Shown here in pieces: positions 4,518 through 48,719 of a stretch of DNA of 64,000 bases. Source of the DNA: a virus (taxonomy: Duplodnaviria; Caudoviricetes); the IMG/VR virus record IMGVR_UViG_3300049988_000245, positions 128,001 to 192,000 of that record. One strand, written 5' to 3'. Made by a program: the position numbers and the translations under genes. Within the stretch, counting starts at the first letter, position 1, and every line of letters starts with the position of its first letter. Under the pieces are notes generated by a model. It made no database searches, was not told the DNA's origin, and was given only the letters and a program-made list of their open reading frames with translations.

Positions 4518-4984
4518 GAAATACACCCGAGAACAAGCGCACGATCGACGCGATCCTGTACCGGATACTCGCCGACCAAGTCCTCGAAGTGATGGAGTCG
4601 AACGACTTCGGCAAGGACCGCGATCTCTGCCTGGAGATTCTGAACCTTCACTCCGGACAGGAGTGGAAGAAGATGCAGAACTTCAAGGGCACGATCGTGC
4701 TGGAGACGTGGGGACCGAACGCGCCCGGAAACCCCGTGGGTGAGATTCCCAATTTCACCGCGTCCATGAAGGAAACTCTTGGGCTGTTCCGTAGCGGTAT
4801 CACGTCGCATTTGCGTCCGGTGATGCGGCAGTACCCGGACGAGCAGTGGTGCGTAACGTTCGACTTCGGCACGCCTATGCTGAACGCCCCCAGGGTGTAC
4901 GGGGAAGACCCGATCTCAACCCTGTTGATCTGCGGGCTTCTGTCGGCCGCATTCCTGCTCGATCCGAACAAGGCGGCGCTGTGA
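4514..4984 (+). CDS. Hypothetical protein
   Basis: 156 aa, GTGA overlap with the previous gene. Confidence 0.55.
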   Translation: MRNTPENKRTIDAILYRILADQVLEVMESNDFGKDRDLCLEILNLHSGQEWKKMQNFKGTIVLETWGPNAPGNPVGEIPNFTASMKETLGLFRSGITSHLRPVMRQYPDEQWCVTFDFGTPMLNAPRVYGEDPISTLLICGLLSAAFLLDPNKAAL

Positions 4985-5229
4985 GCGATTACGATGATCT
5001 GGAACGCCAATACCCGTTCCCGCACGTCGTCGAGATTCGCGACTTCTCTAACAAGCGTGAGGCCAAGCTCTGGTGCATCCAGCGCTTTGGAAAGAACATC
5101 CGCCTGCGTGATACGAATGACGTGATGTGGATGTCCACCACCACGATGTGGCAGAGCGCCTTGGGGGCGAGTACATACCGGTTTCGCAATCCCGATCACG
5201 CGTTCGAGTTCAAGATGAGGTGGGGATGA
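4981..5229 (+). CDS. FKxRW-family small protein (member 1)
   Basis: GTG start overlapping the previous stop; KLWCIQRFG ... YRFRNPDHAFEFKMRWG. Confidence 0.7.
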   Translation: MSDYDDLERQYPFPHVVEIRDFSNKREAKLWCIQRFGKNIRLRDTNDVMWMSTTTMWQSALGASTYRFRNPDHAFEFKMRWG

Positions 5230-5498
5230 CTCGCATCCATATCATTCAATTCCCACCAACGCATTCGTACTTCGGCAGGATGTATATTGTCGATCAGATA
5301 CTGCCTCACGTGACGCTTGAAACCAACCCTCACTCGTTGGTCGAATTTCTCGTGGACAGCCAGGATTTCAACACATGGTGCTATGACCGGCGAATTCCGA
5401 TCCATGGGAAGAAGTATGCTCATCTTCCAAATGAGTGTGAATATGTCGATCTGAGCGATGATCAGCGATTCGAATTCAAAATGCGTTGGGGTTACTGA
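5226..5498 (+). CDS. FKxRW-family small protein (member 2)
   Basis: ATGA overlap; TWCYDR ... DLSDDQRFEFKMRWGY. Confidence 0.7.
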   Translation: MTRIHIIQFPPTHSYFGRMYIVDQILPHVTLETNPHSLVEFLVDSQDFNTWCYDRRIPIHGKKYAHLPNECEYVDLSDDQRFEFKMRWGY

Positions 5499-5782
5499 TG
5501 CATCCCATTTTGTTAGCTGCGGTCCAGTTTTTTCGGTTCGACGATGGCGTAACGCCCGCGATTGTAGTGTTCGTGGGTGATCTCGCGGCGCGATGTCACA
5601 TGGAAGATGAATTCTTGAAACACTTGCCACCCCGGCATGACGCAGTGGAATTCTTTGATTGGTGTGATGAACGCGGACTGAAACCCATGCTGGAGCAAGA
5701 TGAGCCGGATGAAAACCTCTGGACGGTCAAAATTCCTGACCCGACGATTCGGTTCGAATTCCGTATGCGCTGGGGCAACTGA
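5498..5782 (+). CDS. FKxRW-family small protein (member 3)
   Basis: TGATG overlap; DWCDERG ... IPDPTIRFEFRMRWGN. Confidence 0.7.
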   Translation: MHPILLAAVQFFRFDDGVTPAIVVFVGDLAARCHMEDEFLKHLPPRHDAVEFFDWCDERGLKPMLEQDEPDENLWTVKIPDPTIRFEFRMRWGN

Positions 5783-6114
5783 TGGCAACGTTCTTCGACA
5801 TCGACGACCCGATCATCCGGAGGCTCAATTTCAAGCAAATTGGGGACGATTTCGCTGGTCTGTACCGGGTCGCACCGAGGTGGGACCCCCTGGTGGAGCA
5901 TACGATTAACCCTCAGGAGGATTATGCGCCTGACTTTCAGGAAATGATCGACTTTGTCCAGTCGGATGCTTTGCTCGGACAGATGTATGTGGAATACTAC
6001 GACCCGTTCAAGATGGCTGCTTCCAATGGTGGACGAATCGTCCGCTACCACAGCATCAATTTCTATTTTACCGACTCGGCTACGGCGTTCGCATTTAAGA
6101 TGAGGTTCGGCTGA
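5782..6114 (+). CDS. FKxRW-family small protein (member 4)
   Basis: TGATG overlap; ends FYFTDSATAFAFKMRFG. Confidence 0.7.
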   Translation: MATFFDIDDPIIRRLNFKQIGDDFAGLYRVAPRWDPLVEHTINPQEDYAPDFQEMIDFVQSDALLGQMYVEYYDPFKMAASNGGRIVRYHSINFYFTDSATAFAFKMRFG

Positions 6115-6338
6115 TGGCCAAGCAGGCGGTATATTCGAGTTCCGAGTGGAAACAACCGGCGCGTATGCCCCATGGGGTAAGGATAAAAGTGGATTCTCAT
6201 CCCTGGTCTGAGATCAAAGGGTGGCTTAGAGACCGCAGTCATATTGGGGTGTTCCGGTTCGACGAAGGTGCGTTTCACAACGTATTCTGGTTTTCGAACG
6301 AGAACACGGCGTTCGAGTTCAAGGTACGATTTGGATGA
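6114..6338 (+). CDS. FKxRW-family small protein (member 5)
   Basis: TGATG overlap; KGWLRDR ... WFSNENTAFEFKVRFG. Confidence 0.7.
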   Translation: MAKQAVYSSSEWKQPARMPHGVRIKVDSHPWSEIKGWLRDRSHIGVFRFDEGAFHNVFWFSNENTAFEFKVRFG

Positions 6339-6955
6339 AAATTTTCTTCAAACCGGAAGATCGCTCGTACTTGTATTATGCGAACGCCCGTGGTCGCGAC
6401 ATCTGCGCGAAGCTAAACTTCATGGGGCGGCTGGTCCTGCGTGCGGAGGGATGGCGGGTCGAGCCGAACAGCATCTTCCATCCTGATGGTTCTTATCGAT
6501 TTTTCGAGAACGGTTTTCTTGGAAATGGTGCCGGAGAGGGCGTACCGTTCATCGACGATCTGCGGATGGCCAAGCGTCAGGCGAGGGAGATGTTCCGAAG
6601 GATCGAGCGGCGGACCTACCGGAACGCTTTCCGCATGTGCCGGTCAGATATCTTCCGTGAGCGGATGTCTGGCCTTACAAGTGAGAAGAAGGTCCGCCGC
6701 TGGAGTCAGAACGGAGAACTTCGACACGCTCCGAAGGCGCTGCGGTATCCGATGTTCATTGGGGATGACTTCGATTCCCTCCCCGAGGGGATGGAGGAGT
6801 GGCTGAACACGCGCGACTGCACTCTTCCTACGTTGGAAGGGACCTGCTTCACCACCAAGCGGATGACCCGCTCGATTACCCACCGGGTGCATGACGTGAT
6901 GATCGACTTTCCCGATCGAGAGACGGCGTTCGAGTTCAAAATGAGGTGGCTTTGA
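6335..6955 (+). CDS. FKxRW-family protein with long N-terminal extension (member 6)
   Basis: ATGA overlap; EEWLNTR ... DFPDRETAFEFKMRWL. Confidence 0.7.
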   Translation: MKIFFKPEDRSYLYYANARGRDICAKLNFMGRLVLRAEGWRVEPNSIFHPDGSYRFFENGFLGNGAGEGVPFIDDLRMAKRQAREMFRRIERRTYRNAFRMCRSDIFRERMSGLTSEKKVRRWSQNGELRHAPKALRYPMFIGDDFDSLPEGMEEWLNTRDCTLPTLEGTCFTTKRMTRSITHRVHDVMIDFPDRETAFEFKMRWL

Positions 6956-7041
6956 TGTTGCGCAAGCTGTTCGGACGCAATGACGGCATGGGGATTACCA
7001 TCTGTCTGAAGGCGATTGATGCGATCAGGATTTCCGTATGA
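6955..7041 (+). CDS. 28-aa bridging mini-ORF (MLRKLFGRNDGMGITICLKAIDAIRISV)
   Basis: Starts in the TGATG of member 6 and stops in the ATGA of member 7. Confidence 0.45.
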   Translation: MLRKLFGRNDGMGITICLKAIDAIRISV

Positions 7042-7406
7042 AAATATCTGCGCTTGCTGTAATCGCTTGTGTCGTAACCGGTTCTCTCGTGCTCGGAGTG
7101 TACTGGCTTGCCTTGGCATACCAAAATCGAGTCAACAAAATAAAATATCTGGAGTATACTAGGGAATTAAGAAACGCGATAAAGAATCCACATTATAGGA
7201 TTGTATGGGACTTTAGAAATAAAACATCAATTAATCAATGTATAAATTGGAACGTTAACGAACAAAAAATTGACCTTAGCCAAGAAGTTATCAGTTGGCT
7301 TGATGAAAACTGTCCAGAAGTACGGGTTATGCAGGACGATTACGATCTCCTAATAATTTTTACGAACGAAGAGGACAAATTCCATTTTAAGATGAGATGG
7401 ATGTGA
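7038..7406 (+). CDS. FKxRW-family protein with N-terminal membrane anchor (member 7, AT-rich gene)
   Basis: Hydrophobic N-terminus; SWLDENCP ... IFTNEEDKFHFKMRWM. Confidence 0.7.
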   Translation: MKISALAVIACVVTGSLVLGVYWLALAYQNRVNKIKYLEYTRELRNAIKNPHYRIVWDFRNKTSINQCINWNVNEQKIDLSQEVISWLDENCPEVRVMQDDYDLLIIFTNEEDKFHFKMRWM

Positions 7407-7762
7407 TGGACCTGCAATTCTGGATCGGATTCTGGATAATATGGGGGAGTTGGATTCCGGCGATCTTTGCAATCCTCTCCGACTTGGATGGGGATCGGGT
7501 ACGACGTGAGCGCAAGGCGATTCTGCGCGGGCCATCCTTGTGCATCGAAGGAAAGCCCTTGATACAGGAGTTTCCGGAGATTCAGAAGCTGGAGCGCTCT
7601 GCCAGACCCGTCAGATCGGGTGGGGCGCTGTACGCCGAGGTGTGCGAATGGTGCGATAAATTCCTCAAGAGCCCTCCCCGGTACTATCGGGACAATCGGC
7701 GCCCCTACGCGGTGTTCCGTTATCCGGACGACGCGTTCCAGTTCAAGCTGCGGTGGCTATGA
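7406..7762 (+). CDS. FKxRW-family protein with N-terminal membrane anchor (member 8)
   Basis: FWIGFWIIWGSWIPAIFAIL; EWCDKF ... FRYPDDAFQFKLRWL. Confidence 0.7.
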   Translation: MDLQFWIGFWIIWGSWIPAIFAILSDLDGDRVRRERKAILRGPSLCIEGKPLIQEFPEIQKLERSARPVRSGGALYAEVCEWCDKFLKSPPRYYRDNRRPYAVFRYPDDAFQFKLRWL

Positions 7763-8154
7763 TGCTAGTGGGGATTCTGACAGGAGTGATCCTCTCGGTT
7801 GGATTTATCGGCGGGGCTATCGGTCTGAAGAAGTATCGCGCAAGGATGCAGGAGTTCGATCGAAGAATCCGGGAGTATGATCTCCTCCTGCTCCGAGCGA
7901 AGCCGAATTTCATCTTTTCCCTGGGCAATATTTCAGACACGCGCGGTACCCATATATCTTCGCCAGCTTCCCAATACGAATGGATTCGCTATGACCTGCG
8001 GCATGGTCTGTTCGAGGTTCATCCTGACGTGATCAAGTGGTGCGACGAACTTGCACCCGGATATGTGGTGGAGAATGACGAGCAATCTGGTGAGATGATC
8101 CTCGCCTTTGCCAACGAGAACGACAGGTTTCATTTTAAGATGAGGTGGTTGTGA
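7759..8154 (+). CDS. FKxRW-family protein with N-terminal membrane anchor (member 9)
   Basis: LVGILTGVILSVGFIGGAIGL; KWCDELAP ... FANENDRFHFKMRWL. Confidence 0.7.
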   Translation: MMLVGILTGVILSVGFIGGAIGLKKYRARMQEFDRRIREYDLLLLRAKPNFIFSLGNISDTRGTHISSPASQYEWIRYDLRHGLFEVHPDVIKWCDELAPGYVVENDEQSGEMILAFANENDRFHFKMRWL

Positions 8155-8348
8155 TGCCAATATTCTTCGTACCCCCGCAGCATCGCACATGCCCGGATTG
8201 TGATGTCCTTGTTCCGATAGCTATTTCGGTTGCAGTCGTAGTTTTTACGATAGTCTTTCTCTGTGCCGCTGTATTCCTGATCGGATTCGTAGAAAGGCGA
8301 ATTTGTAAGAAGCCAATCAGTAATCGGATCATAGAGAAACCAAAATGA
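8154..8348 (+). CDS. Small membrane protein with CxxC
   Basis: TGATG overlap; CPDC followed by a long hydrophobic stretch. Confidence 0.5.
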   Translation: MPIFFVPPQHRTCPDCDVLVPIAISVAVVVFTIVFLCAAVFLIGFVERRICKKPISNRIIEKPK

Positions 8349-8349
8349 T

Positions 8350-9042
8350 ACTGAGAGGCCGAGCTACGCTCAGCCTGCTGTGTGCTTGCTTGTTCACTGA
8401 CGTTCACTTCGCTTCACCACAGCGAAATATCTTAAAGATCATTCATCCTTGATCTCGAAAGATCATCGCTTTATTCTCCCCCTCCACTTGAGACATAATG
8501 GTTTCAAGAAACAATTATCACTCAAGTGGAAGAGAAGATGGTTCGGTTGTCTCGATGAGTCAATCGTTCAACAAGCCACGTAGCTGATTCTACTCAGCGC
8601 AGGCGGTTACCCGGTACCTGCTTTGCAGCCCAATCTCGGCATGATTCCTTCTGAAACTGATGTAGGGAGGGTCCACGCATGTGCTCATCGAGCCCTTTCA
8701 TGCCTGGGTCTTGCCATCCAGCGAATCTGTTTTATCTGCCTAACGGTCGTTGCTTTTGCAACACTCACACCACCAGACTGTTGAAGCATCGGTGGTGCGC
8801 AGGAACGGGCCAAAGGTCGTCGAAGGCACACGTTTCCTGTCATTTTAGGTGCGTTTTGCGAAAATCCCTTGGGATTCGCCGAGCCGCCGTTTTCGTCGCC
8901 CGAGGGGCGCATCGATCCGTCTCGTGGGCCGTCTTTGCCGAGGGTCCGGTCTACAGGTCGATGACCCTCAGTTCCCGGATGCCAGTTTGTGGGCGGAGCA
9001 ACCCGATGACGCAGGCTCCTAGACGTATGCTTGGTTCAAGAT
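8350..9042 (-). ncRNA. Candidate large structured non-coding RNA (class unknown)
   Basis: No convincing ORF; TAAATA promoter at 9053-9048; many helices (8474-8536, 8599-8621, 8749-8762, 8858-8879, 8940-8969). Confidence 0.55.
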
Positions 9043-9073
9043 GGTTATATTTATCGTTCATCGTTTTCAATAT

Positions 9074-9090
9074 ATTTCGTTGAACCAAAA
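9074..9090. promoter_or_regulatory. Palindromic operator-like site
   Basis: ATTTCGT-TGA-ACCAAAA between the ncRNA promoter and the HAD gene. Confidence 0.5.
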
Positions 9091-9114
9091 ATGAATTTCT
9101 GCTATTGCCCCATC

Positions 9115-9609
9115 ATGTGTGATCTCCTTTCGCTCCCCAAGCTCGACCATCCTCTGCTCGATCCTCACGCGATCATCGCCTGGGATATGGACGGGACGCT
9201 CATCGACGGTCCGAACGCGAAGTTTTTTCGCGCGTACATTCTCGCTCATCCCGAGAAGCAACATCACATTGTCACGTTCCGGACCGGACCGGCTCTGCGA
9301 ATCACTGAGGTGGAGATGTGGAAGGACGAGTGCGTGTACGAGTTGTTCCACCTCGGCGTCCCCCATGGGACGATCAAGCAGACTCACTCGATGCCCGACC
9401 ACCTCTATCACGCCTGGGCGCAGCGGAAGAGCTTCATCCAAGAGACCGAGGTCGCCGCGTTCCTTGACTGGAAGGGGAAGACCGCCGCAGAGATAGGCGC
9501 CACCGTGATGATCGATGATATGCCCGGAATGGTGAAGAAGGGCTGCGCCAAGTACGGAGTGACGTTCATCGACGCCCATAGTAAACAGTTCGGCTACGAG
9601 GGCGAATGA
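9115..9609 (+). CDS. HAD-superfamily hydrolase/phosphatase
   Basis: Motif I WDMDGTL and motif IV MIDD; start could be 9091 or 9115. Confidence 0.75.
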   Translation: MCDLLSLPKLDHPLLDPHAIIAWDMDGTLIDGPNAKFFRAYILAHPEKQHHIVTFRTGPALRITEVEMWKDECVYELFHLGVPHGTIKQTHSMPDHLYHAWAQRKSFIQETEVAAFLDWKGKTAAEIGATVMIDDMPGMVKKGCAKYGVTFIDAHSKQFGYEGE

Positions 9610-9836
9610 TGTGGTCGCAGGACGAGGACGAAACTGAGGTTTGGCGCCGGACCGATGGGGCTACGGTGAAACGTATGTCAGGCGCGACGCTGAATCCATA
9701 TTCGGTCCATGACCGGACCGGATGCGCGATGCAAAACTTCTATCCCGGACGCAAACCGGTTCGTAGGATGTTCAAGTCGCCTGAGTTCGCCATGCTCGCG
9801 GCGGACAAGCACTGGCCACTGAAGGTGGACGCATGA
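9606..9836 (+). CDS. Hypothetical protein
   Basis: ATGA overlaps at both ends. Confidence 0.55.
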   Translation: MMWSQDEDETEVWRRTDGATVKRMSGATLNPYSVHDRTGCAMQNFYPGRKPVRRMFKSPEFAMLAADKHWPLKVDA

Positions 9837-10351
9837 GGTTGCTCCGGTACGTCGTCGAGCATCACCGGGCCAAGGGTCTCTGCCCGTATCAGATCGGCTT
9901 CAGGTCGTGGATCACCGACGAGGAGCGGGACGAGATGATTGCCTGGGCTCAGGCGAACTTGTCGGCGAACGCTGATTGGCACCCGCGCGCACATACGTGG
10001 CACTTCCCCACAGAGGAAGAGCTAAACGCGTTCATCGCGCATCGTCGGATGGACACCTGGGAAACGCGGATTCCACAGTGCATATGGGATGATGCCCCGT
10101 TCGAAGTGGCTGGATGGGTGACGGTGGACTCCCGAAAGCACCAGCGCCTCGATTTCGAAGAGAATTCTATCGACTGGTTCTGGTGCCGGGTGGACAAATG
10201 GGTCGTCGAGAATTGTCAGAAGCAGGTCATCAATTCGTCGCTCTCTCCGGGTCAGAATCGGGGGCGCGGTGCGCTTCTATCCAACTATGAGTCGCATTTT
10301 GGATTCGAGAGCGCCGAGGAAGCCACGTTGTTTCGAATTCGCTGGAACTAG
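9833..10351 (+). CDS. FKxRW-family protein, probably a tandem double domain (member 10)
   Basis: IAWAQAN ... HFPTEEELNAF, then KWVVENC ... FGFESAEEATLFRIRWN. Confidence 0.65.
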   Translation: MRLLRYVVEHHRAKGLCPYQIGFRSWITDEERDEMIAWAQANLSANADWHPRAHTWHFPTEEELNAFIAHRRMDTWETRIPQCIWDDAPFEVAGWVTVDSRKHQRLDFEENSIDWFWCRVDKWVVENCQKQVINSSLSPGQNRGRGALLSNYESHFGFESAEEATLFRIRWN

Positions 10352-10677
10352 CGCCTCTTTAGGGTGACCCGGTAGGCGCCGCCACCATTGAGGATTTCGA
10401 TCGAGCGAACCCCGTTGGCCCGCTCCATCCAGTGGGGAAACTCCCGGCAGATTGCCCCGGACTTTCCCGTGACGACGACGAAGCTCGCCACCCCGGCCTT
10501 GCGCTTCTCTTCGACCATCCCGAGTGTTCGGGTGTGAGCGGACGCGATCGTGTCCCCGTGGAGGTCGATCGATTCTAGGGGTAAGTATGGCTCCAGCCGT
10601 GGGTCACGGCGAATCTCGCCCTGGCCCAGCGGGGTTATAGAGCGTTTCACATATTCCCAGAGTGAATCTTTCTTCAT
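10348..10677 (-). CDS. Small Smr (MutS2 C-terminal-like) domain protein
   Basis: IDLHG ... VVTGKSG ... GGGAYRV Smr signature. Confidence 0.8.
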   Translation of the reverse strand: MKKDSLWEYVKRSITPLGQGEIRRDPRLEPYLPLESIDLHGDTIASAHTRTLGMVEEKRKAGVASFVVVTGKSGAICREFPHWMERANGVRSIEILNGGGAYRVTLKRR

Positions 10678-10902
10678 GGCTCGATTCGGCTAAAAAATTA
10701 ATCCACTTTACCGAATCTGCTTGCGCGGTCGCAATATCAAATTAGGTTTCTCACCGTACGGCTATGGCGTGAGAGCACGCATGCAGCAATGCATTCATTC
10801 GGCCGTGCAGATTCGAGACCCAAGCTAACCCTGAACGTCTCGTTTCGACCCTCGGTGCCGGTCTTTGTCTGGGTGCCCTTGGATGGGACCGGCACCGTTG
10901 GC

Positions 10903-11148
10903 TCAATACCAACGCAGCTTGAACTCCATCGCCGCGTCTGGATCGGTAAACGCGAATCCCGTCTTCTTCGATCCATACCAGCGACGCGCGAAATCCGTCT
11001 CGAATCGCGATCCGGGCGGGTCCATCGGCCCGAAGCGATCGACCACCCACCCTAGGATGGAAATATATTCGGCGAAGGCTTCCTCTTCGGCCCAAATGAA
11101 CCCGTAGGGATACCCGTGGAGGTTCTGGTGCTCTTTGAATCTTACCAT
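10903..11148 (-). CDS. FKxRW-family small protein (member 11)
   Basis: TAATG overlap; GWVVDRFG ... FAFTDPDAAMEFKLRWY. Confidence 0.7.
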   Translation of the reverse strand: MVRFKEHQNLHGYPYGFIWAEEEAFAEYISILGWVVDRFGPMDPPGSRFETDFARRWYGSKKTGFAFTDPDAAMEFKLRWY

Positions 11149-11426
11149 TAGCACCACCGCATCTTGAAACCGAAAGCATCCTCTGAGTTGGCGAAGTAGA
11201 TGTTATAGGCTAAAGGCCGATAGCGGGTGAAATCCATGCCGTCGTACTGGTTTCTACACCACCACAGGATTTCATCCAGAAAATCTTCCGGATTTCCTAA
11301 GCCTTTATCGGTGAACGCCGTCGTCTTGAGGCGAAACCGGTATGGATAGGCAGTGCCTTCGGCTGTAGCCTCCTCCCACACGCGTATCCCTTCCCACTCC
11401 GGCTTCATCTGACTGATCCGTCGCAT
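11148..11426 (-). CDS. FKxRW-family small protein (member 12)
   Basis: TGATG overlap; WWCRNQ ... YFANSEDAFGFKMRWC. Confidence 0.7.
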   Translation of the reverse strand: MRRISQMKPEWEGIRVWEEATAEGTAYPYRFRLKTTAFTDKGLGNPEDFLDEILWWCRNQYDGMDFTRYRPLAYNIYFANSEDAFGFKMRWC

Positions 11427-11662
11427 CAGGTCCACCGCAGTCGAAATTCCATGATGTCGTCCGGTTGTGTGAGGACGATCGCATAGGGGTAGTAGGCCCA
11501 GCGCTTCGGTACGTCGGTAACCTGCTGGATTTCTTCCGCCTCACCGAATCGCGATATGCACCAGATCACCACGGCGTTGTAACGGACCATATCGGCGGCC
11601 TTGCCGACGAAGTGAACGGTGCCTTCGACTGAATGGTCTATGTGAAATCGAAGATCGTCCAT
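11426..11662 (-). CDS. FKxRW-family small protein (member 13)
   Basis: TGATG overlap; IWCISRFG ... LTQPDDIMEFRLRWT. Confidence 0.7.
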   Translation of the reverse strand: MDDLRFHIDHSVEGTVHFVGKAADMVRYNAVVIWCISRFGEAEEIQQVTDVPKRWAYYPYAIVLTQPDDIMEFRLRWT

Positions 11663-11934
11663 CACCCCTGAGCCCATTTGGCTTGGCCATTTTCGTACAT
11701 GGTAAACCTCTTGCCCCGTAGGAGATCGGTCGTCAGAGCGAACCGACCGTTGACGAGCCGTTCCGTGCCTCCCGAGCAGGCGTAGAGAAGCCCGTCGTTG
11801 GGATTGCGCAGATAGGTGGGGCCGCCGCAGACCATGTCGCGCGCATCCATAGAATGAAATAGCTCCGTCTCTTCGTCCTCGTGCCAGCCCTTGGCCTTGA
11901 GCGCATCGACCTGAGCGAAACGACCATACTCCAT
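11662..11934 (-). CDS. Hypothetical protein heading the leftward array
   Basis: AGGAG SD; start moved to MEYGRF. Confidence 0.55.
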   Translation of the reverse strand: MEYGRFAQVDALKAKGWHEDEETELFHSMDARDMVCGGPTYLRNPNDGLLYACSGGTERLVNGRFALTTDLLRGKRFTMYENGQAKWAQG

Positions 11935-11949
11935 CGGGGATGCTCCTAA

Positions 11950-11966
11950 AATTGGTTCGACGAAAA
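11950..11966. promoter_or_regulatory. Palindromic operator-like site
   Basis: AATTGGT-TCG-ACGAAAA in a divergent intergenic region. Confidence 0.5.
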
Positions 11967-12087
11967 TTATTGCGCGCATGGTTAATGCCCGCTATGGTCC
12001 CTTCATCGAACAGGGGATGTGCCTGACCCTAGTCGAGTGATTAAAATTTTTCCAGGCATTCTTGATTTTTCCAAGGTTACTATTTTC

Positions 12088-12447
12088 ATGTCCGACTCCG
12101 TTGCTGCAACCGAAGCCCGTCGTCCGCGCGCCCCCAAGGGTGGTCGCGTCAAGGAGCGCGCCCGCCGCGTCATCGACACCGCCAGCCTCGCCGACTACCT
12201 CGCCGGTCTCGATCTCGGTGTGAACCCGTCCATCCATGTGAACGGCCACGCCTTCCAGATGGCCCTTGTCACGGTCGATTTCGGCCAGCCCCTCAAGTCG
12301 ATCAAGCTCACCCAGGAGCAGAACGCCGAGTTCACCGATCGCCTTCGCAAGCTCGGTCGCGAAGTCCTCGGCCGTGGCGAGAACGCCGCCGTGCGCGTCT
12401 CCCACGACCTCACCGCTGGTCTGGTTTACTACGTCAGCGCGGTCTAA
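12088..12447 (+). CDS. Hypothetical protein with strongly biased codon usage
   Basis: Start moved to MSDSV; followed by a terminator-like hairpin and T tract. Confidence 0.65.
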   Translation: MSDSVAATEARRPRAPKGGRVKERARRVIDTASLADYLAGLDLGVNPSIHVNGHAFQMALVTVDFGQPLKSIKLTQEQNAEFTDRLRKLGREVLGRGENAAVRVSHDLTAGLVYYVSAV

Positions 12448-15061: not shown

Positions 15062-15139
15062 TGGCGCGTCGTAACGGAGTCGAACCGATATTGCCCTGAG
15101 TGAAGGTCAGGTTTCCTAAGCCAATTAGAAGAACGACGC
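15062..15139 (-). tRNA. tRNA-Glu(UUC) with non-canonical C33
   Basis: Cloverleaf: acceptor GCGTCGT/ACGACGC, G73, encoded CCA; anticodon arm CCTGA-CCTTCAC-TCAGG; one T-stem mismatch. Confidence 0.85.
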
Positions 15140-15169
15140 ATTTCACCCGTCACGGTGAAAACTGGTAAA

Positions 15170-15245: not shown

Positions 15246-15247
15246 AT

Positions 15248-18990: not shown

Positions 18991-19254
18991 ATGCTTATAG
19001 AACACCGCGATACGGCTATGCGGCTGAAAGAACACCTCAAGACCCAGCGGGCCATCGACCCTACCGTGGGCGTGGGGTCGGCATTCCGGCCCGGCCTGAC
19101 CGAGGGTAGCGTCGTCGTGCCCGCGTTGTACGTGTATCTGAGCGAGGTCGATATGAAGCGCATCTCGCTGCCCCTGAACGAGTTCGAGGGGATGCCGGTG
19201 ATCTACCGGGTCGGGGAAGCTCGAATCTCGGGGACCAAGGCCGGGCAGTGGTGA
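18991..19254 (+). CDS. Hypothetical protein
   Basis: 87 aa; GVGS..., EFEGMPVIYRV.G. Confidence 0.5.
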   Translation: MLIEHRDTAMRLKEHLKTQRAIDPTVGVGSAFRPGLTEGSVVVPALYVYLSEVDMKRISLPLNEFEGMPVIYRVGEARISGTKAGQW

Positions 19255-19514
19255 TCGAACGCTCCGGTCTGGGATTTGCCCTAAGCCCGGATGGGCTGGA
19301 CGTGTTCCGTGAGATCAAATCCATGCAAGGGTCTGTATATGGGTTCGATTTCGTCGCCATCGGCGATTGGTTGATCGATAACGATTATCATCTCTATCTG
19401 CTCTATAGAGAGAAAGTGATGAAGAAAGGAGTTACGTATGATTCTAATTGCATAGGTGGTTTCTTTATGGAATCTGAGGAGCATCACGTGGCGTTCCGGA
19501 TGCGTTGGTTCTGA
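19251..19514 (+). CDS. FKxRW-family small protein (member 16)
   Basis: GTGA overlap; DWLIDND ... FMESEEHHVAFRMRWF. Confidence 0.65.
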   Translation: MIERSGLGFALSPDGLDVFREIKSMQGSVYGFDFVAIGDWLIDNDYHLYLLYREKVMKKGVTYDSNCIGGFFMESEEHHVAFRMRWF

Positions 19515-19801
19515 TGCCGCTGATTCGGATATCCGACACGATGACGTTCCGAGAGACCGACACTTTGGTGATCAAAGAATGCGAGGACGGCTGGTGGGGC
19601 TATGCTTTCATCCGGCCGTATCCGGATAACATGCTCCCTCCAGGGGATCACAGTTTCGAAACAGTCTACTCCGACGCCCTAGCATGGTGTCAGGAGCGAT
19701 TCGGAATTCCAATCAAACGCTGGAAGCCCGCAATCAGCGATCTATTCATCCTGCTCCACCGCGAGTCAGACGCGTTCGAATTTAATCTTCGCTGGTGTTA
19801 A
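19514..19801 (+). CDS. FKxRW-family small protein (member 17)
   Basis: TGATG overlap; AWCQERFG ... LHRESDAFEFNLRWC. Confidence 0.7.
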   Translation: MPLIRISDTMTFRETDTLVIKECEDGWWGYAFIRPYPDNMLPPGDHSFETVYSDALAWCQERFGIPIKRWKPAISDLFILLHRESDAFEFNLRWC

Positions 19802-38573: not shown

Positions 38574-38596
38574 GATTAACCATAAGCGAATCTCCC

Positions 38597-38615
38597 AATT
38601 TCGTTCGACGAAATT
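38597..38615. promoter_or_regulatory. Palindromic operator-like site (perfect 8-bp arms)
   Basis: AATTTCGT-TCG-ACGAAATT just before a TTGACC -35 box. Confidence 0.65.
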
Positions 38616-38716
38616 CGCTTGACCGGCTTCGGAATGCTGGTAGAAATGACCTCGTTGATAGCGGATTTCGATGCGGGGCGCATCGGACGGGCCTTCATTC
38701 TAGAGGAAGCATTTAA

Positions 38717-40222
38717 ATGAGCAAGAGCAGCAAGAAGATCGAGAGCACCCAGCTTAAGCCGTCCGAAATCTCTGCCGCAATTCGCGCCGCAATGAAGACC
38801 GATCGGTCTGCATTCATCTGGGGTCCCCCCGGAATTTCGAAGTCCCAGGTCTCCTCGCAGATCGCCACCGACATGGGCATCGCCTTCGTCGATTTCCGCC
38901 TCTCCCAGCTTGACCCGACCGATCTGCGCGGCATCCCCTACCCGACCAAGGTCGGCGGTCGCGAGGGCGTTCGGTGGTCCATCCCCTACGCTCTGCCGGT
39001 GGACATGGACCTGACGTTCACCGTCCGCATCGACGACGCCGACGAGACCCGCGTCGAGGTGTCCAACCCCAAGGGCTCCAACGGCATCCACTACGTCACC
39101 AACCCGCGCATCCGCGTCACCTCGCTCACCGATGGTGTCACCGCCCAGGTGATCCAGCAGTACGAGACCGACGAGGACGGCGAGGTCGTGTACTACGATG
39201 ACGAGGGCACCCTCGTGAAGGCTCTCACCGGTACCCCGGTGGTCGATTTCCTGGCGGCCCAGAAGCTCGGCAAGCACCCGGCCAACGTCGCCCCGGTCAA
39301 GGTGAACAACCTCGACAGCGTCGTGATCCTTCTCACCGATGATGCCACGGGCAAGCCCACCACGGGTCGCGTCCGTATCGTCGGCACCGGAAAGGCCCGC
39401 GCGGTCCTCGCCCTGGAGGAGTTCAACTCGGCTCCCCCGTCCGTGCAGGCGTCGGCCTACCAGTTCGTGCTCGATCGTCGCCTCGGCGAGTACATCGTGC
39501 CGAAGGGTGTGAAGATCATCGCCATGGGTAACCGTGACACCGACAAGGGCGTCACCTACAAGATGCCCACCCCGATCGCCAACCGCTTCATCCACTTGGA
39601 GATGCGTCCGGACTTCGAGGACTGGCAGATTTGGGCGCTCAAGCACGAGGTGCACCCGGACGTGGTCGGCTACCTCTCGGCGTTCAAGCAGCAACTCTTC
39701 GACTTCGATCCCGGCACGGCGGCCCGTGGCTTCGCCACTCCGCGTTCCTGGCACTATGTGTCGGACCTCCTGCAACAGAACGGCGATCTCCCCGAGATGG
39801 TCGGCGTCGGTCTGGTGACCGGCTCGGTCGGCGATGGACCCGGCCTCCAGTTCTGGGAGTTCCGCAAGATCGCCCGTGACCTGCCCGAGGCGGACAAAAT
39901 CCTCTCCGGCCAACTCAAGAAGATGCCCCGTCAGGTCGAGATTTCGCTCGCCTACGCTCTGACCACGACCCTGTGCTACGAGTTGAAGGAGCGTTACTCG
40001 AAGTTCGAGCGCAAGCAGGGCTGGCAGAACGGCGAGGATTACAAGAAGTGGATGTCGGAGGCTGACAACTTCATCGAGTTCCTGATGGAGAACTTCCAGC
40101 CCGAGATCAGCATCATGGCGACCCGCGCTGCGGTGCAGGTTCACAAGCTGCCGTTCCACATGAGCAAGATGAAGAACTTCCTCAAGTTCGCCGAGAAGTA
40201 CCGCAGCCTCGTGATGTCCTAA
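38717..40222 (+). CDS. MoxR-type AAA+ ATPase with a large insertion
   Basis: WGPPGISKS, RLSQLDPTDLRG, LEEFNSA, GNR..DKG, NRF.HL, TPRSW. Confidence 0.85.
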   Translation: MSKSSKKIESTQLKPSEISAAIRAAMKTDRSAFIWGPPGISKSQVSSQIATDMGIAFVDFRLSQLDPTDLRGIPYPTKVGGREGVRWSIPYALPVDMDLTFTVRIDDADETRVEVSNPKGSNGIHYVTNPRIRVTSLTDGVTAQVIQQYETDEDGEVVYYDDEGTLVKALTGTPVVDFLAAQKLGKHPANVAPVKVNNLDSVVILLTDDATGKPTTGRVRIVGTGKARAVLALEEFNSAPPSVQASAYQFVLDRRLGEYIVPKGVKIIAMGNRDTDKGVTYKMPTPIANRFIHLEMRPDFEDWQIWALKHEVHPDVVGYLSAFKQQLFDFDPGTAARGFATPRSWHYVSDLLQQNGDLPEMVGVGLVTGSVGDGPGLQFWEFRKIARDLPEADKILSGQLKKMPRQVEISLAYALTTTLCYELKERYSKFERKQGWQNGEDYKKWMSEADNFIEFLMENFQPEISIMATRAAVQVHKLPFHMSKMKNFLKFAEKYRSLVMS

Positions 40223-40243
40223 TCCGGGCATCTGATGCGAAGA

Positions 40244-40373: not shown

Positions 40374-41738
40374 ATGGCGGACATCAACGACCCCATTTAC
40401 CAGCTAATCGTCGCCGCGCGCGTCCAGCTACTTTTCGATAAGCCGTTCTTCGGCAACGTCGCCGCGCGCCTGATCCTCGTGGATGCCACGGACTGGTGCG
40501 GCACCGCCGCCACCGATGGCCGCCACCTCTACTACAATCGCGAGTTCATCAAGTCGCTCCAGAAGGACGAGTTGATGTTCCTCGTGGCGCACGAAATCCT
40601 GCACTGCATCTACGACCACCTTGGTCGGCGCGGCGGACGTGATCCGAAGCTGCTCAACATGGCGCAGGACTACGTGATCAATTACACGCTGATCGAGGAC
40701 CGCTGCGGAAAGATGCCCGACATGGGCCTTTACGATAAGCGCTTCCCCGACACGATGCTGTCCGAGGAGGTCTACGAAATCCTCAAGAAAGAGTCCGTGA
40801 CCATCCGGATGCCGCTCGACGAGCATCTGGACCTGCTCGGCGAGGACCCGAAGGACGATAAGGACGACGGCGGCGGCTCCGGCGACCAGAACGGCAAGGG
40901 CCAGAAGTACGTCGATGTCACCGTGATGGGCAAGAACGGCCCGCCCAAGCTGACCGAGGAGGACATCGCCAAGATCAGGTCGGAGATCAAGGCGTCGGTG
41001 ATCCAGGCCGCCCAGGCGGCCGGTGCGGGCAACGTGCCCCGTGGCGTCGCCCGGATGATCGAAGACCTGATCAACCCGAAGCTCGACTGGCGCACCCTGC
41101 TGGACGCGCACATTCGTTCGTCGGTGAAGGACGACTACACGCTCCAGCGGATGTCTCGCAAGACTTCGGCGCTCCGCTATGCGGCGAGCGAGGAGCAGAA
41201 CGCCCGTGCCATGGGCACGGCGGACGACGAGCATTTCGAGGGCGAGATGTCCGTCATGTCCGGCCTGGAGGATGACGACGACGCATCGTTCTCCGTGCCG
41301 ATGCTGCCGACCCAGGACTACATGAACACCGTGGACATCATGGTGGCCATCGATACGTCGGGCTCGATGACCGAGACGATGCTGCGTGACTTCCTGTCCG
41401 AGACCAAGGGGATCATGCAGACGTTCCGCGACTTCCGCGTCCGCGTCTGCACGTTCGACACCCAGCTTTACAACTACATGGAGTTCACGGGCGAGAATAT
41501 TGACTCGATCGATGACTACCCGATGGCAGGCGGCGGCGGCACCATGTTCGAGGCCGTGTGGGAGTACATGAAGCGCGAGGGTATCGAGCCCCACCGCCTC
41601 GTTCTGTTCACGGACGGTTATCCGAACTCCACCTGGGGCGACGAGGGCTACGTGGACACGCTGTTCGTGATCCACGGGAACAACCAGATCAAGGCCCCCT
41701 GGGGGATCACCTGCTACTACGAGGCCAACGAGGGCTGA
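40374..41738 (+). CDS. Zinc metallopeptidase-VWA protein (DUF2201-like), partner of MoxR
   Basis: TAATDG, AHEILH (HExxH), NMAQDYVIN; VAIDTSGSM MIDAS, GGGT, FTDG. Confidence 0.85.
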   Translation: MADINDPIYQLIVAARVQLLFDKPFFGNVAARLILVDATDWCGTAATDGRHLYYNREFIKSLQKDELMFLVAHEILHCIYDHLGRRGGRDPKLLNMAQDYVINYTLIEDRCGKMPDMGLYDKRFPDTMLSEEVYEILKKESVTIRMPLDEHLDLLGEDPKDDKDDGGGSGDQNGKGQKYVDVTVMGKNGPPKLTEEDIAKIRSEIKASVIQAAQAAGAGNVPRGVARMIEDLINPKLDWRTLLDAHIRSSVKDDYTLQRMSRKTSALRYAASEEQNARAMGTADDEHFEGEMSVMSGLEDDDDASFSVPMLPTQDYMNTVDIMVAIDTSGSMTETMLRDFLSETKGIMQTFRDFRVRVCTFDTQLYNYMEFTGENIDSIDDYPMAGGGGTMFEAVWEYMKREGIEPHRLVLFTDGYPNSTWGDEGYVDTLFVIHGNNQIKAPWGITCYYEANEG

Positions 41739-41803: not shown

Positions 41804-42037
41804 ATGGCTTGCCCAAACATGCTCGACGAGGTTGTTCCGCTCGAAGTGATCGCCCAGGTGGCGGCGCGGTTAGACGTGCATCGGGTTACAGTTGGGCAAC
41901 TGTCGGCTATCCGCGCCCCAGAGGTGATCGCGTGGCTCAAGTCGGATGAGGCCGAGGGATCGCACCTGTCCGGTGCGGGGGAATGGTTATTCACCGACCT
42001 CGGTACGGCGATGGCGTTCAAATTGAGGTTCGGCTGA
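41804..42037 (+). CDS. FKxRW-family small protein (member 21)
   Basis: GAGGAG SD; AWLKSD ... LFTDLGTAMAFKLRFG. Confidence 0.7.
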   Translation: MACPNMLDEVVPLEVIAQVAARLDVHRVTVGQLSAIRAPEVIAWLKSDEAEGSHLSGAGEWLFTDLGTAMAFKLRFG

Positions 42038-42267
42038 TGTCCTGCGACCGCGCATGGTACCCGCCCACCCACAATGCGGTTGCGGGCTGGCCCATGGTCG
42101 AGATCACCGTGACCGAAGAGTCCTGGCCGGATATTGTCGATTGGATCGCCGGGGATGAGGCGCATGGGGAGTTCATCGACGGAATCGCGGTGTACTTCGA
42201 CCAAACCACGGCCCTTCGGTTCTCCGATCCGGACACGGCGTTCGCGTTCAAGATGAGGTTCGGGTGA
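42037..42267 (+). CDS. FKxRW-family small protein (member 22)
   Basis: TGATG overlap; DWIAGD ... RFSDPDTAFAFKMRFG. Confidence 0.7.
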   Translation: MSCDRAWYPPTHNAVAGWPMVEITVTEESWPDIVDWIAGDEAHGEFIDGIAVYFDQTTALRFSDPDTAFAFKMRFG

Positions 42268-42518
42268 TGGCCCTACTCCTCGCAGGCGCCCACGCGGCTC
42301 TGGAGCACAAGGTAATGGTCCCGCATGGGCGGTGGACCAAGATGCCGAACCCGATGAACCGCCGGATAGTCTCCCACGTGAGCCCGTTCGAAGGCCCATT
42401 CTTGGAATGGCTGAATGACCGGCCCGGTTCCTGGGACATGGAATCGCGGATCGATGGTTTGGAATTCGGGTTCTCAAATCGCGACACCGCGATGGAATTC
42501 AAAATGAGATTTGGTTGA
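42267..42518 (+). CDS. FKxRW-family small protein (member 23)
   Basis: TGATG overlap; EWLNDRPG ... GFSNRDTAMEFKMRFG. Confidence 0.7.
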   Translation: MALLLAGAHAALEHKVMVPHGRWTKMPNPMNRRIVSHVSPFEGPFLEWLNDRPGSWDMESRIDGLEFGFSNRDTAMEFKMRFG

Positions 42519-42802
42519 TGGACCGGAACGACCCTGCGGCGCACAAATTCATTGTCGGTCGGATCGAGCGCGAGGATATGCGATCGATCCTGTTCATCCT
42601 GCCCCATCACGAAAGCCGATTCCTGCTGGTGTTCGACTACACCGTCCAGGCGGATGGGAAGGGCTCTGCGTACGCACAGGAGATGTGGCACTGGATGGTC
42701 GAGCGCGGAATGGATTTGCAGCGCGATCAGCAGGCGTACTACGATTTTATGGCCTACGTGGATGCTGATCTGGCGATGGAATTCAAAGTCAGGTGGATGT
42801 AA
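42518..42802 (+). CDS. FKxRW-family small protein (member 24)
   Basis: TGATG overlap; HWMVERG ... YVDADLAMEFKVRWM. Confidence 0.7.
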   Translation: MDRNDPAAHKFIVGRIEREDMRSILFILPHHESRFLLVFDYTVQADGKGSAYAQEMWHWMVERGMDLQRDQQAYYDFMAYVDADLAMEFKVRWM

Positions 42803-43092
42803 TGGCCAGCCAAGTAAAGATCGCCAACCTTCAAGACGAGCGCGTTGTCCAGGCGCAGATCGACGAAGCTATTGAGAAGGGATGGACGCGCGTCCATATC
42901 GGCCAACCCGTACATTGGCCGGAGGTGCATCGCTTTCTCGATGCCGCTCAGGGTAGCTACCTGACGGTGTCTCGAATCAACGAGACACCGGAAGTGTCCA
43001 CCGATCGGCAGTGGACGCAGTGGAAATATCGGCAGAACTATTGGTTCTCCGACCCCAACACGGCATTCGATTTTAAGCTCAGATACGGTTAG
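42802..43092 (+). CDS. FKxRW-family small protein (member 25)
   Basis: TAATG overlap; ends WFSDPNTAFDFKLRYG. Confidence 0.7.
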   Translation: MASQVKIANLQDERVVQAQIDEAIEKGWTRVHIGQPVHWPEVHRFLDAAQGSYLTVSRINETPEVSTDRQWTQWKYRQNYWFSDPNTAFDFKLRYG

Positions 43093-43792: not shown

Positions 43793-43793
43793 T

Positions 43794-45964: not shown

Positions 45965-46561
45965 ATGGCCCTCGTTCCTATGGTGCTTGAACAGGACGGT
46001 CGTTCGGAGCGCTCTTTCGATCTTTTCAGCAGGATGCTGCGAGACCGGATCATCTTCGTGACCGGCGAAGTCGAAGACAACATGGCGAATCTCATCGCCG
46101 CCCAGATTCTCTTCCTTGAGAGCGTCGATCCGGACAAGGATATCTCCCTGTACATCAACTCGCCGGGTGGCTCGGTCACAGCGGGTATGGCGATCTTCGA
46201 TGCGATGAATTTCGTGAAGTGCGACATCGCAACGATCGTCATGGGTCAGGCGTGCTCGATGGGCGCGTTCCTGCTCTCCGCCGGGACCAAGGGGAAGCGC
46301 GTTGCCTTGGCGAACTCCCGCATCATGATTCACCAGCCGTCCTCCGGCATGGGCCGGTCCACCGTGACGGACATGGAGATTCAGCTTGCGGAAGTCCTCA
46401 AGATGAAGCGCTCCCTCACCCAGCATCTCGCCGACCATTGCGGGAAGACGTACAAGGAAATGTACGACCTCTGCGAGCGCGACCACTTCATGGATGCGGA
46501 AGAGACCATGGCTCTGGGTCTGGTCGATCGGGTCGTGAAGAATCGTTCGGAAATCGTCTGA
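45965..46561 (+). CDS. clpP: ATP-dependent Clp protease proteolytic subunit
   Basis: [26 protein letters not shown] (Ser), MIHQP (His), ERD (Asp). Confidence 0.95.
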
Positions 46562-46776: not shown

Positions 46777-46777
46777 C

Positions 46778-47188
46778 ATGATCGAACCATTGCCCCCGGT
46801 GCCGCTCGACCCTCACTCGGACAGAGATGAGATCGAGCGGCTGGAATTTCACATCGAACGACTCGAAAGCATCCTGCGGGAGAACGGCCTCGGTGATCTG
46901 ATCCCCGAGCAACCCCCGACGATCGCAGAGGCCCGTCAGGCGTTCATGGCGGCCGATCTTCCGTGGCTCTCTCCGGAGGCTCAGGAGGCGTTCCAGGGCG
47001 TTCCAGAGAACCACGGCACCCGAAACCCCGGCATCATTTCCTCGCCCCTGCTGGAGGCTGCACGGCGCCGTCTGGAGGAATTGCCGCCGGACTTCCTCGG
47101 CCGGTTCGCCAATATGGAGTTGCTTCCCCTGGACGTGCCGGAGATCATCGGTCCGACCAAGGACGAGGACGGGGACACCGGGTGCTGA
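46778..47188 (+). CDS. Hypothetical protein
   Basis: Start moved to MIEPLPP. Confidence 0.5.
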   Translation: MIEPLPPVPLDPHSDRDEIERLEFHIERLESILRENGLGDLIPEQPPTIAEARQAFMAADLPWLSPEAQEAFQGVPENHGTRNPGIISSPLLEAARRRLEELPPDFLGRFANMELLPLDVPEIIGPTKDEDGDTGC

Positions 47189-47589
47189 TCTGGGCGCTGG
47201 CCGTCCTGTTCACCCTGGTGCTGATCCAGCACAAGCATCTGGTGATCGATTGGATATGGCAACCGAAGTTCGAATGGTCGAACAAGCACGAGTACGGGCA
47301 CCTCGGTGGGGTTTGCCACGCGGGTAAGAACGCGCTCGGGACCGGGCTGTGCCTGTTTGCGGGAATGCCGGGGGTGACGATTGGATTCGCGTTGTGGCTG
47401 ACATTCTTGGACTTTGTGATTCACTATCACATCGACTGGTCCAAGATGAATCTGAATCGTTACTGGAATCTGGATGCTTCGAAGCCGCAATTCTGGTGGC
47501 TGACTGGATTTGACCAGCATCTCCACCAGATGACCTACTTGGGTCTAGTATGGTACGCGTTGATCGTGGGGTTCGGTAGGATCGGGTAA
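47182..47589 (+). CDS. DUF3307-like membrane protein
   Basis: HLVIDWIWQ, GGVCHAG, HYHIDWSK, FWWLTGFDQHLHQ. Confidence 0.7.
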   Translation: MLIWALAVLFTLVLIQHKHLVIDWIWQPKFEWSNKHEYGHLGGVCHAGKNALGTGLCLFAGMPGVTIGFALWLTFLDFVIHYHIDWSKMNLNRYWNLDASKPQFWWLTGFDQHLHQMTYLGLVWYALIVGFGRIG

Positions 47590-47999
47590 TGGCACAGACA
47601 CCGTCTGGGATTTTTCAGCTTGAACTGAATACGTTCGAGACCAAGATGTTTGATCTTGGTAGGATGTTCTCGGAAAATGTTGGTCAGGTTAAGATCGACT
47701 TCTTTAAAAAGAAGATCACCGTCAACGTAATGGATGACGCCGAGGGGGCGGTTTTTAAGTTCCTCTCGAAGATTGCCGAAGATAAGGAGCGCGTCCTTCG
47801 GATCAAATACGGTGATCCAGTCGGATACACACTGGACTTTACCGGCACCGAAGTGGACTCCCACACATTCGATATGGGTGATGCGTACGAGGTCAAGAAC
47901 GCGCTTCTTGCCATCTCGACGCTCGCTGGCATGACCTATAACCAGACGCCGATGCACCACAAGATCGTGTTCTCGTACAAGGACAAGATTGCCAAATGA
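47589..47999 (+). CDS. Hypothetical beta-rich protein
   Basis: TAATG overlap; 136 aa. Confidence 0.55.
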   Translation: MAQTPSGIFQLELNTFETKMFDLGRMFSENVGQVKIDFFKKKITVNVMDDAEGAVFKFLSKIAEDKERVLRIKYGDPVGYTLDFTGTEVDSHTFDMGDAYEVKNALLAISTLAGMTYNQTPMHHKIVFSYKDKIAK

Positions 48000-48457
48000 G
48001 CACGGATTTCACCGCCATCGCCAAGGTGATGATCCCGAAAATTCGTCGGACCATGCCGTCGATCATCGCCTCAGAAATCATTGGGGTGTCTCCGATGACC
48101 GGACCGACCGCGAGCATCTACGCGCTGCGCGCCCGATACAGCGCGTTCACGGACGGCTGCTCCGGGATCGATTGCGGTTTCGGTCCGGACATGTCGCCCA
48201 CTTATGGGGTCATCTACGCAACCTGTGTGGACTTCCCGATGAACCATCCACTGCGGAATGATCCGCAAGCCGTGGTGACCTGGGCGCTTCAGAATTGCCG
48301 GAAGTCGTTCACCTACTCGACCGTGGTGATCGGTACGACAATGAATCCTCCGGAGACGGACGAGCGAATCATGAAGATTCGACCTGCCAACCGAGTATGG
48401 CGCTGGACATTCGCAGACGAGGATGATGCTTTCGGGTTCAAGGTTCGTTGGATGTAA
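47996..48457 (+). CDS. Fusion of a gp23-like major capsid fragment and an FKxRW domain (member 26)
   Basis: IPKIRRTMPSIIASEIIGVSPMTGPTASIYALRARY; TWALQNC ... TFADEDDAFGFKVRWM. Confidence 0.7.
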   Translation: MSTDFTAIAKVMIPKIRRTMPSIIASEIIGVSPMTGPTASIYALRARYSAFTDGCSGIDCGFGPDMSPTYGVIYATCVDFPMNHPLRNDPQAVVTWALQNCRKSFTYSTVVIGTTMNPPETDERIMKIRPANRVWRWTFADEDDAFGFKVRWM

Positions 48458-48458
48458 G

Positions 48459-48719
48459 ATGAAATCGCGCGATTATAGTGTAGTCATAGAGGGAGATTAC
48501 GGAAACAACCATCGGTATGGATTCGACCTATACTTCAGCACCAATTGGGGCTACCCAATGTACGCGTGGTGTGAAGAACAGTTTGGCCCGCCTTATGACT
48601 CGACTACCAATCCCGATGGCGTATGGTCGCGCTTTCATCAGAGCGGTTGTATTCACTATGTACAGGTTCGATTTGAGCAAGTCGAATACGCCATCGCGTT
48701 CAAAATGCGTTTTCTTTGA
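48459..48719 (+). CDS. FKxRW-family small protein (member 27)
   Basis: AWCEEQFG ... VRFEQVEYAIAFKMRFL. Confidence 0.7.
   Translation: MKSRDYSVVIEGDYGNNHRYGFDLYFSTNWGYPMYAWCEEQFGPPYDSTTNPDGVWSRFHQSGCIHYVQVRFEQVEYAIAFKMRFL

Follow-up and report, generated by a model that had tools for sequence, protein, structure and literature searches.

Why do so many small genes of one virus end in almost the same few amino acids? The question is raised by a stretch of 64,000 nucleotides, hereafter the window, which covers positions 128,001-192,000 of one virus contig of 265,895 bp (IMG/VR record IMGVR_UViG_3300049988_000245) and in which a run of small open reading frames (ORFs) ending in AFEFKMRW(G/L/C) directly before the stop codon is visible in the ORF listing of 4.5-12 kb. 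An earlier note on this DNA, written from the sequence alone, had described 27 such ORFs as an expanded family. By using a loose regular expression for the terminal motif, we collected 23 ORFs, whose last 65 residues were used as the seed of a hidden Markov model (HMM). This seed model retrieved exactly 27 ORFs in the window, all of them at the clusters named beforehand (Table 1), and all 27 were significant (E 1e-5 to 1e-15) after iteration of the HMM over the whole genome. The iterated model identified 89 members over the contig, and the earlier count of 27 is a lower bound for the phage. Our best reading is an ancient and stable multigene family, the products of which are small accessory proteins that share one mini-domain not described before.

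The 89 members span 26.4 kb, or 9.9% of the contig DNA with conservative start calls, and are spread over 47 arrays or singletons, with up to 8 genes in an array. Many paralogues in one genome, largely in tandem arrays, are what defines a multigene family. This one is estimated to supply roughly one gene in five, a value extrapolated from the gene density of Sinorhizobium phage Phosso (735 features in 469 kb) rather than counted, and it is among the largest gene families seen in any phage. The source is a T4-like jumbo phage. Its contig (G+C content 56%, CheckV completeness about 57%) encodes topoisomerase II subunits, an RnlA-type RNA ligase, a tail-fibre-like gene, ClpX, ClpP, Hsp20 and three tRNAs, and the large topoisomerase subunit is 57% identical to that of Phosso and 51% identical to that of Agrobacterium phage Atu_ph07. 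The family arrays are scattered over replication and accessory genes; they lie among the topoisomerase, Clp, ligase and tRNA genes, outside structural operons. The phage is present in leaf, phyllosphere and silage metagenomes of several studies, which fits a Methylobacterium-like host; the host is probably Methylobacterium or a related alphaproteobacterium.

The features from which the family had been recognized by eye were recovered in the enlarged set. A strict form of the motif (F-x-[FL]-[KR]-[MLVI]-R-[WFY], no more than two residues from the stop) occurs 17 times at ORF ends in the window, whereas 50 dinucleotide-preserving shuffles gave at most one occurrence and contained on average 0.1 motif anywhere in six frames. 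Over the whole contig, no more than 5 residues separate the end of the domain from the stop codon in 81 of the 89 members. The tryptophan of the proposed upstream helix is found in 82 of 88 members and is followed by C or L, E and G (W-[CL]-x-E-[RN]-x-G). In addition, the genes are indeed arranged in coupled arrays, with 24 of the 42 junctions between adjacent members overlapping by 1 or 4 nt.

What, then, is the shared element? The HMM consensus of the domain comprises 58 residues, and the proteins that carry it are about 91 aa long (median); the domain has a median isoelectric point of 5.5 and is acidic in 63 of 89 members. We modelled two paralogues that are 24% identical to each other with AlphaFold2 and deep alignments. 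The model of 42037-42264 (predicted local distance difference test score, pLDDT, 75) contains beta1 (residues 20-24), alpha1 (30-38), beta2 (46-52), beta3 (57-62) and alpha2 (65-75), and that of 10906-11148 (pLDDT 82) has the identical order of elements plus an additional N-terminal strand. In both paralogues the domain is predicted to be a two-layer alpha/beta structure of the order beta1-alpha1-beta2-beta3-alpha2. The last helix, alpha2, was modelled as ordered (pLDDT 87-92), and in these models the terminal motif is the N-cap (D-P-N-D) and the final helix (A-F-x-F-K-M-R-W) of the domain; this explains the position of the motif at the stop codon, as the domain stops after that helix.

The conserved columns of the family alignment are mainly hydrophobic with strand or helix periodicity, and the alignment does not contain any conserved stretch of 7-10 columns. 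The charged exceptions are E17 and E24 in alpha1, D46 at the N-cap, and K/R54 (97% basic) and R56 (88% Arg) in the last helix. Most of the conservation of the terminus can be explained by folding, because the models predict that it forms a helix integral to the domain. The invariant arginine is encoded by all six codons (18/17/14/9/8/7), so the constraint acts on the protein and not on the DNA; a role of the motif as a DNA-level recombination site was ruled out on the same ground.

The earlier note had pictured a carrier domain of about 60 aa with variable payloads. One half of this picture stood, as a common domain of that size has been massively expanded, and two paralogues with only 24% identity share a predicted fold. 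The carrier role, on the other hand, found little support. The extension before the domain has a median length of 27 residues, being 30 residues or shorter in 52 of 89 members and reaching 60 residues or more in only 12. Most members are therefore essentially the bare domain, and the variety sits in the domain's own surface. The extensions are unrelated to each other, as had been claimed: no pair of them matches at E<1e-3, and they include three transmembrane-like segments and one fragment of the capsid protein Gp23. A homodimer prediction for member 10906-11148 gave a score of 0.00 and weighs neither way.

No named relative of the family could be identified, in agreement with the earlier impression. 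Ten members searched against Pfam and PHROGs gave nothing meaningful; when 144 members were scanned singly, Pfam at E 10 yielded no recurring family, no RRM and no ACT domain, and PHROGs v4 yielded one stray match. None of 23 members matched models of NCBIfam 20 or PADLOC 2, and the best hit of a profile search of PDB sequences (E 0.069) was not significant. When both models were used as queries in Foldseek and VIA, the structures in PDB, AFDB clusters, BFVD and the ESM Atlas gave just generic ferredoxin-like or uncharacterised matches with Z of at most 5.8, which is the background level for the aligner. At this background level, the best neighbour was the ACT domain of TyrA (5v0s_B; Z 5.8, root mean square deviation 2.2 over 56 residues), with additional weak matches to RRM4 of Pes4 (Z 5.2), KH, NikR and Lrp/AsnC-RAM domains and, in the Atlas, to AsnC-type domains (TM-score 0.5). 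The top viral and Atlas matches were uncharacterised phage proteins, including those of Atu_ph07 and Caulobacter phage CcrPW. Literature searches on the motif strings and on paralogue families of jumbo phages found no description of the family.

The age of the expansion can be judged from paralogues and orthologues. Within the genome, domain identity between paralogues has a median of 24% and a maximum of 59%, and array neighbours (27%) are hardly more similar than distant copies (25%). Orthologous arrays in synteny could be identified for three regions: locus L006 corresponds to window positions 7759-11677, L007 to 42037-43092, and L001 to genome positions 13-25 kb. Between related phages, orthologues share 46%-87% identity, with a ratio of nonsynonymous to synonymous substitution rates (dN/dS) of 0.05-0.29; the lower identity and the upper ratio belong to the L006 orthologue of the divergent single member at 9833..10351. 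As orthologues reach 83-87% identity but paralogues 59% at most, the expansion is ancient and inherited, and recent duplication does not account for it. The content and order of the arrays, whose comparison in related phages had been suggested beforehand, are kept as synteny apart from one additional member inserted in L007, which indicates that copies are gained and lost. Thus, the individual copies date far back and have each been retained under purifying selection. A gene-calling artefact or decaying pseudogenes were ruled out by the dN/dS values.

These data also bear on the idea that the arrays are a phage diversification system, for which they provide poor support. In contigs of strain X2, which come from independent runs, the arrays are identical, and in strain X4 they differ by 1.0-3.3%, as compared with about 3.6% in the flanking glutathionylspermidine synthase gene. 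Variation specific to the arrays was thus not seen between populations, and the paralogues are too far apart (59% identity at most), and the orthologues too syntenic and constrained, for such a system. Features of a hypervariable cassette were likewise missing, in that there were no close paralogues and the arrays were no more variable than their flank (a reverse transcriptase was not searched for). The family is a repertoire inherited in stable form rather than a device for rapid diversification.

The family extends well beyond this genome. An exhaustive profile search identified 550 representative metagenome clusters at E<=1e-3. Of the 150 clusters listed, nearly all have 55-200 residues with the domain at the C-terminus, and the motif, at or next to the stop codon, terminates nearly all of the 26 metagenome homologues inspected. 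Profile searches gave at least 21 matches in Phosso and at least one in Atu_ph07, all annotated as 'hypothetical protein', while DNA-level and tblastn searches of deposited phages with one array and one member as queries returned nothing useful. Two further IMG/VR contigs, of 75 kb (G001, about 17% complete) and 38 kb (G002), contain 53 and 18 matches, respectively. In the Logan contig L008 (1-4123, ERR6050471), 16 small genes stand back to back without interruption, with the family accounting for at least 14; many start with M-A-C and carry W-x-x-x-D-E-A-x-G, a distinct subfamily that is also found at window 41804-42267.

Further loci were located by searching with a degenerate DNA pattern. 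In G003, a complete provirus of 52 kb whose portal is of the SU10 type, six members lie just upstream of the terminase gene (L019, 1-1770); this six-gene array sits at the provirus end, beside a PAPS-reductase-like gene. The chromosome of Methylobacterium carpenticola (NZ_JBHZEO010000001.1) has five members over two loci (L016, L018). The copies in the provirus and in M. carpenticola suggest that the hosts are of the Methylobacterium type and that unrelated phages exchange the family. Pattern matches in an Acidobacteria and a proteobacterial metagenome-assembled genome (L015, L017) had no meaningful HMM match and were rejected as chance.

The tight packing of the arrays has left a trace in codon usage. 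The terminal arginine is encoded by AGG or AGA in 24 of 63 cases (38%), compared with 7.1% of the arginine codons in long ORFs genome-wide (binomial p 3e-12). Together with the following TGG, these codons form GAGGTGG, a Shine-Dalgarno-like sequence about 5 nt upstream of the overlapping ATG. The end of a gene thus probably also provides the ribosome-binding site from which its neighbour is started, an elegant example of dual coding in the codons of the last helix. Promoters of the form TTGAC(A/T)-N17 are found upstream of some arrays. The late-promoter motif TATAAATA occurs nine times in the genome, and none of these occurrences lies upstream of an array on the correct strand.

What could such a repertoire do? 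The members are probably host-directed. The reading that we prefer, with about even confidence, is that they are small, mostly acidic accessory proteins, each of which would bind a different host or phage target. The conserved hydrophobic residues would serve only to hold the scaffold together, and the divergent surface, loops and short N-terminal extension of each paralogue would bind its own target. Their role would be akin to that of the small early proteins that serve host takeover and counter-defence and are encoded in the plastic regions of T4-type genomes. Several observations weigh against this. K/R54 and R56 in the last helix and E24 in helix 1 are conserved beyond what a scaffold of 24% identity strictly needs, which hints at a shared functional site beyond the folding core; the near-invariant K/R and R of the last helix would possibly leave room for it. 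With respect to expression timing, no RNA-seq run contains the phage, and a scan of 3900-12400 for sigma-70 promoters and terminators was not above shuffled expectation. Finally, the difference in AGG/AGA use between members with a downstream gene that starts at the stop and all others (44% versus 19%) is of only marginal significance (Fisher p 0.057).

A more far-reaching version, which we consider possible but doubtful, is that phages of this clade encode at least 100 stable 'mini-binders' on a private scaffold, which are each directed against a different host protein or defence system and perhaps share a host hub through the conserved Glu/Lys/Arg face. If this were true, one undescribed toolkit for host manipulation would make up a fifth of a giant phage's genes, and it would also be traded among unrelated phages of the same hosts.

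The conserved charges are the starting point of a further explanation, already raised as a second option in the earlier note, in which the members would be adaptors of a common hub: helix 1 (W-C-x-E-R) and the terminal helix (K-M-R-W) would dock a single partner, which could be a hub protein of the host or a machine of the phage, and the variable remainder would be cargo or specificity. K/R54, R56, E17 and E24 are indeed conserved far above the background identity of the family, helical periodicity suggests that the hydrophobic arc of the last helix has the Lys/Arg at its centre, and tight translational coupling would give a roughly equimolar output. However, this helix is predicted to be integral and confidently folded, and the charges could equally be structural salt bridges. 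Moreover, the family occurs in unrelated phages, T4-like jumbo and SU10-type, that share few genes, which makes a hub encoded by the phage unlikely, whereas a host hub would be possible. We regard such docking as rather unlikely.

It is improbable that the family is a large set of post-transcriptional or allosteric regulators that bind nucleic acids or small ligands in the manner of RRM, ACT or RAM domains, even though these domains, with KH and NikR, are its best structural neighbours. The likeness, a two-layer alpha/beta sandwich in beta-alpha-beta-beta-alpha order, is at the background level for so small a fold, and at E 10 none of the 144 members scanned matched an RRM or ACT domain of Pfam. 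The strand-turn-helix F-x-F-x-D-x-x-x-A does resemble the beta3-alpha2 junction of RRM, and there is an invariant Arg. On the other hand, the models lack the final strand (beta4 of RRM), one paralogue having an N-terminal strand instead, and the family is without a profile match, RNP motifs or a conserved ligand loop. F42 and F44 show a core-facing periodicity, while the alternate, outward positions 41, 43 and 45 of beta3 are variable; columns 8-16, which link strand 1 to helix 1 and correspond to the ACT ligand loop, are the least conserved of the family; and the domain is mostly acidic.

Still less probable is a timed-clearance tag. ClpX reads C-terminal tags, and the phage encodes both ClpX and ClpP (Phosso and Atu_ph07 also have Clp genes), so that the shared C-terminus could be a degron by which phage ClpXP removes an early cohort together. 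Yet the terminus is predicted to be a buried, ordered helix and not a free tail, most members have 0-1 residue after the Trp, and there are family members in a phage of only 52 kb and in a bacterial chromosome as well (a phage Clp system was not looked for there). Least probable of all are virion-associated proteins, internal and ejected or capsid accessories delivered with the DNA, which would agree with the Gp23 N-terminal fragment fused to one member, with a recurrent viral cluster of 113 members in the ESM Atlas, 13% of them carrying Gp23, and with the position of the G003 array just upstream of terminase and portal genes, but not with a capsid fragment in only 1 of 89 members, with arrays outside structural operons or with the lack of a late-promoter motif upstream of any array.

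The preferred reading of many small binders with separate targets can be placed beside known systems. In its passages on lineage-specific expansions, the main comparative study of jumbo-phage genomes describes about 35 zinc-ribbon proteins of Bacillus phage G as an 'unprecedented' expansion (Iyer et al., 2021; PMC7824862), and the passages there on expansions and on Atu_ph07 do not mention a family comparable to ours. As far as these passages go, one small domain multiplied in a jumbo genome and thought to supply many specific binders is common to both cases, whereas the domain here is an alpha/beta mini-domain rather than a zinc ribbon and its copy number is two to three times higher. The present copies are also old, with orthologues kept across phages, and the family is found in small unrelated phages as well.

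Multigene families that act on the host are well known in large eukaryotic DNA viruses, for example, MGF110/360/505 of African swine fever virus and the ankyrin/BTB families of poxviruses. Like the present family, they are tandem arrays of divergent paralogues that take a sizeable share of the genome and gain and lose copies, as seen here in L007. There is no relation in sequence or fold, however; our genes are much smaller, translationally coupled and dispersed in many arrays and singletons, whereas those families are concentrated at the genome ends. The hyperplastic regions of T4-type phages hold small early ORFs that encode host-takeover 'monkey-wrench' proteins. These resemble our genes in being short, in lying between conserved core modules, in having some sigma-70-like promoters and in varying in content among relatives, but in T4 they are mostly unrelated to each other, whereas in the present phage a large part of such genes comes from a single domain family.

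Viral multigene families as a phenomenon are known; the family itself is undescribed, and its scale and age are exceptional. Most jumbo-phage genes are without known function, and here one unannotated domain makes up about 10% of the contig DNA. With the family defined, hundreds of sequences labelled 'hypothetical protein' in Phosso, in Atu_ph07 and in viromes of phyllosphere, soil and silage receive a name and an HMM. Since Phosso is cultured on Sinorhizobium meliloti, the function of the family is directly testable. If the members are host-directed binders, they would be a large natural library of small, stable, single-domain proteins.

Table 1. Family members and neighbouring genes in the window (E, value of the family HMM unless another model is named).
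Feature	Position	Strand	Remarks
Array of nine family genes	4981..8154	+	E 2e-8 to 7e-15; domain ends 0-1 residue from stop
Genes 1-5 of this array	about 4981-5229, 5226-5498, 5498-5782, 5782-6114, 6114-6338	+	starts overlap previous stops
Genes 6-9 of this array	about 6335-6955, 7038-7406, 7397-7762, 7759-8154	+	
Single divergent member	9833..10351	+	ends in EATLFRIRWN; E 1.1e-9 after iteration
Smr-domain gene	10348-10677	-	between two family arrays
Three coupled members	10903-11148, 11148-11426, 11426-11677	-	syntenic with L006, 66-83% identity
tRNA cluster	15062-15322	-	Glu-TTC, Glu-CTC, Asp-GTC
Member pair	17137-17355 (or longer), 17394-17651	-	E 4.6e-9, 7e-12
Member pair in 19251..19801	about 19323-19514 (divergent), 19514-19801	+	E 5.4e-6, 4.1e-13
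ClpX	28987-30294	+	zf-C4_ClpX and AAA_2
Glutathionylspermidine synthase homologue	33668-34861	+	phrog_6215, E 3e-91
Three members	35571-35774 (or longer), 35849-36154, 36158-36742 (194 aa)	-	E 1.2e-6, 2e-11, 3e-8
Hsp20-like protein	36903-37460	+	
AAA-ATPase-like protein	38576-40231	-	550 aa
HNH-endonuclease-like protein, large	40374-41738	+	phrog_1314, E 2e-98
Five members in 41804..43092	starts 41804, 42037, 42267, 42518, 42802	+	1-nt start/stop overlaps
ClpP	45965-46561	+	PF00574, E 1.6e-73
Member pair	47996..48719	+	E 5.7e-11, 2.9e-11; first member (47996-48457) is a Gp23 fragment plus the family domain

Among the window members, the seventh and ninth genes of the nine-gene array have transmembrane-like N-termini by hydropathy, and the eighth looks similar by eye. 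In the first member of the last pair, residues 8-50 (43 residues) match positions 4-46 of Gp23 (Pfam PF07068, E 3.5e-12), a stretch that, by comparison with T4 gp23, we take to be the conserved N-terminal part of the mature capsid protein. A complete major capsid gene could not be detected with PF07068 in the 266-kb contig, which is about 57% complete; additional isolated Gp23 fragments are located at genome positions 109647-110807, outside the window.

Several neighbouring genes deserve a brief comment. With 93% identity to its L006 orthologue (dN/dS 0.07), the Smr protein is far more conserved than the family genes on either side. Read depth peaks over the ClpP region in each of the four metagenome runs, presumably owing to cellular clpP contigs that map to it. 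The glutathionylspermidine synthase homologue is an auxiliary metabolic gene unusual in phages. Just upstream of the five-gene array lie both the HNH-endonuclease-like protein and the AAA-ATPase-like protein, the latter being 37-43% identical to ATPases of Phosso and of PA5oct-type Pseudomonas phages.

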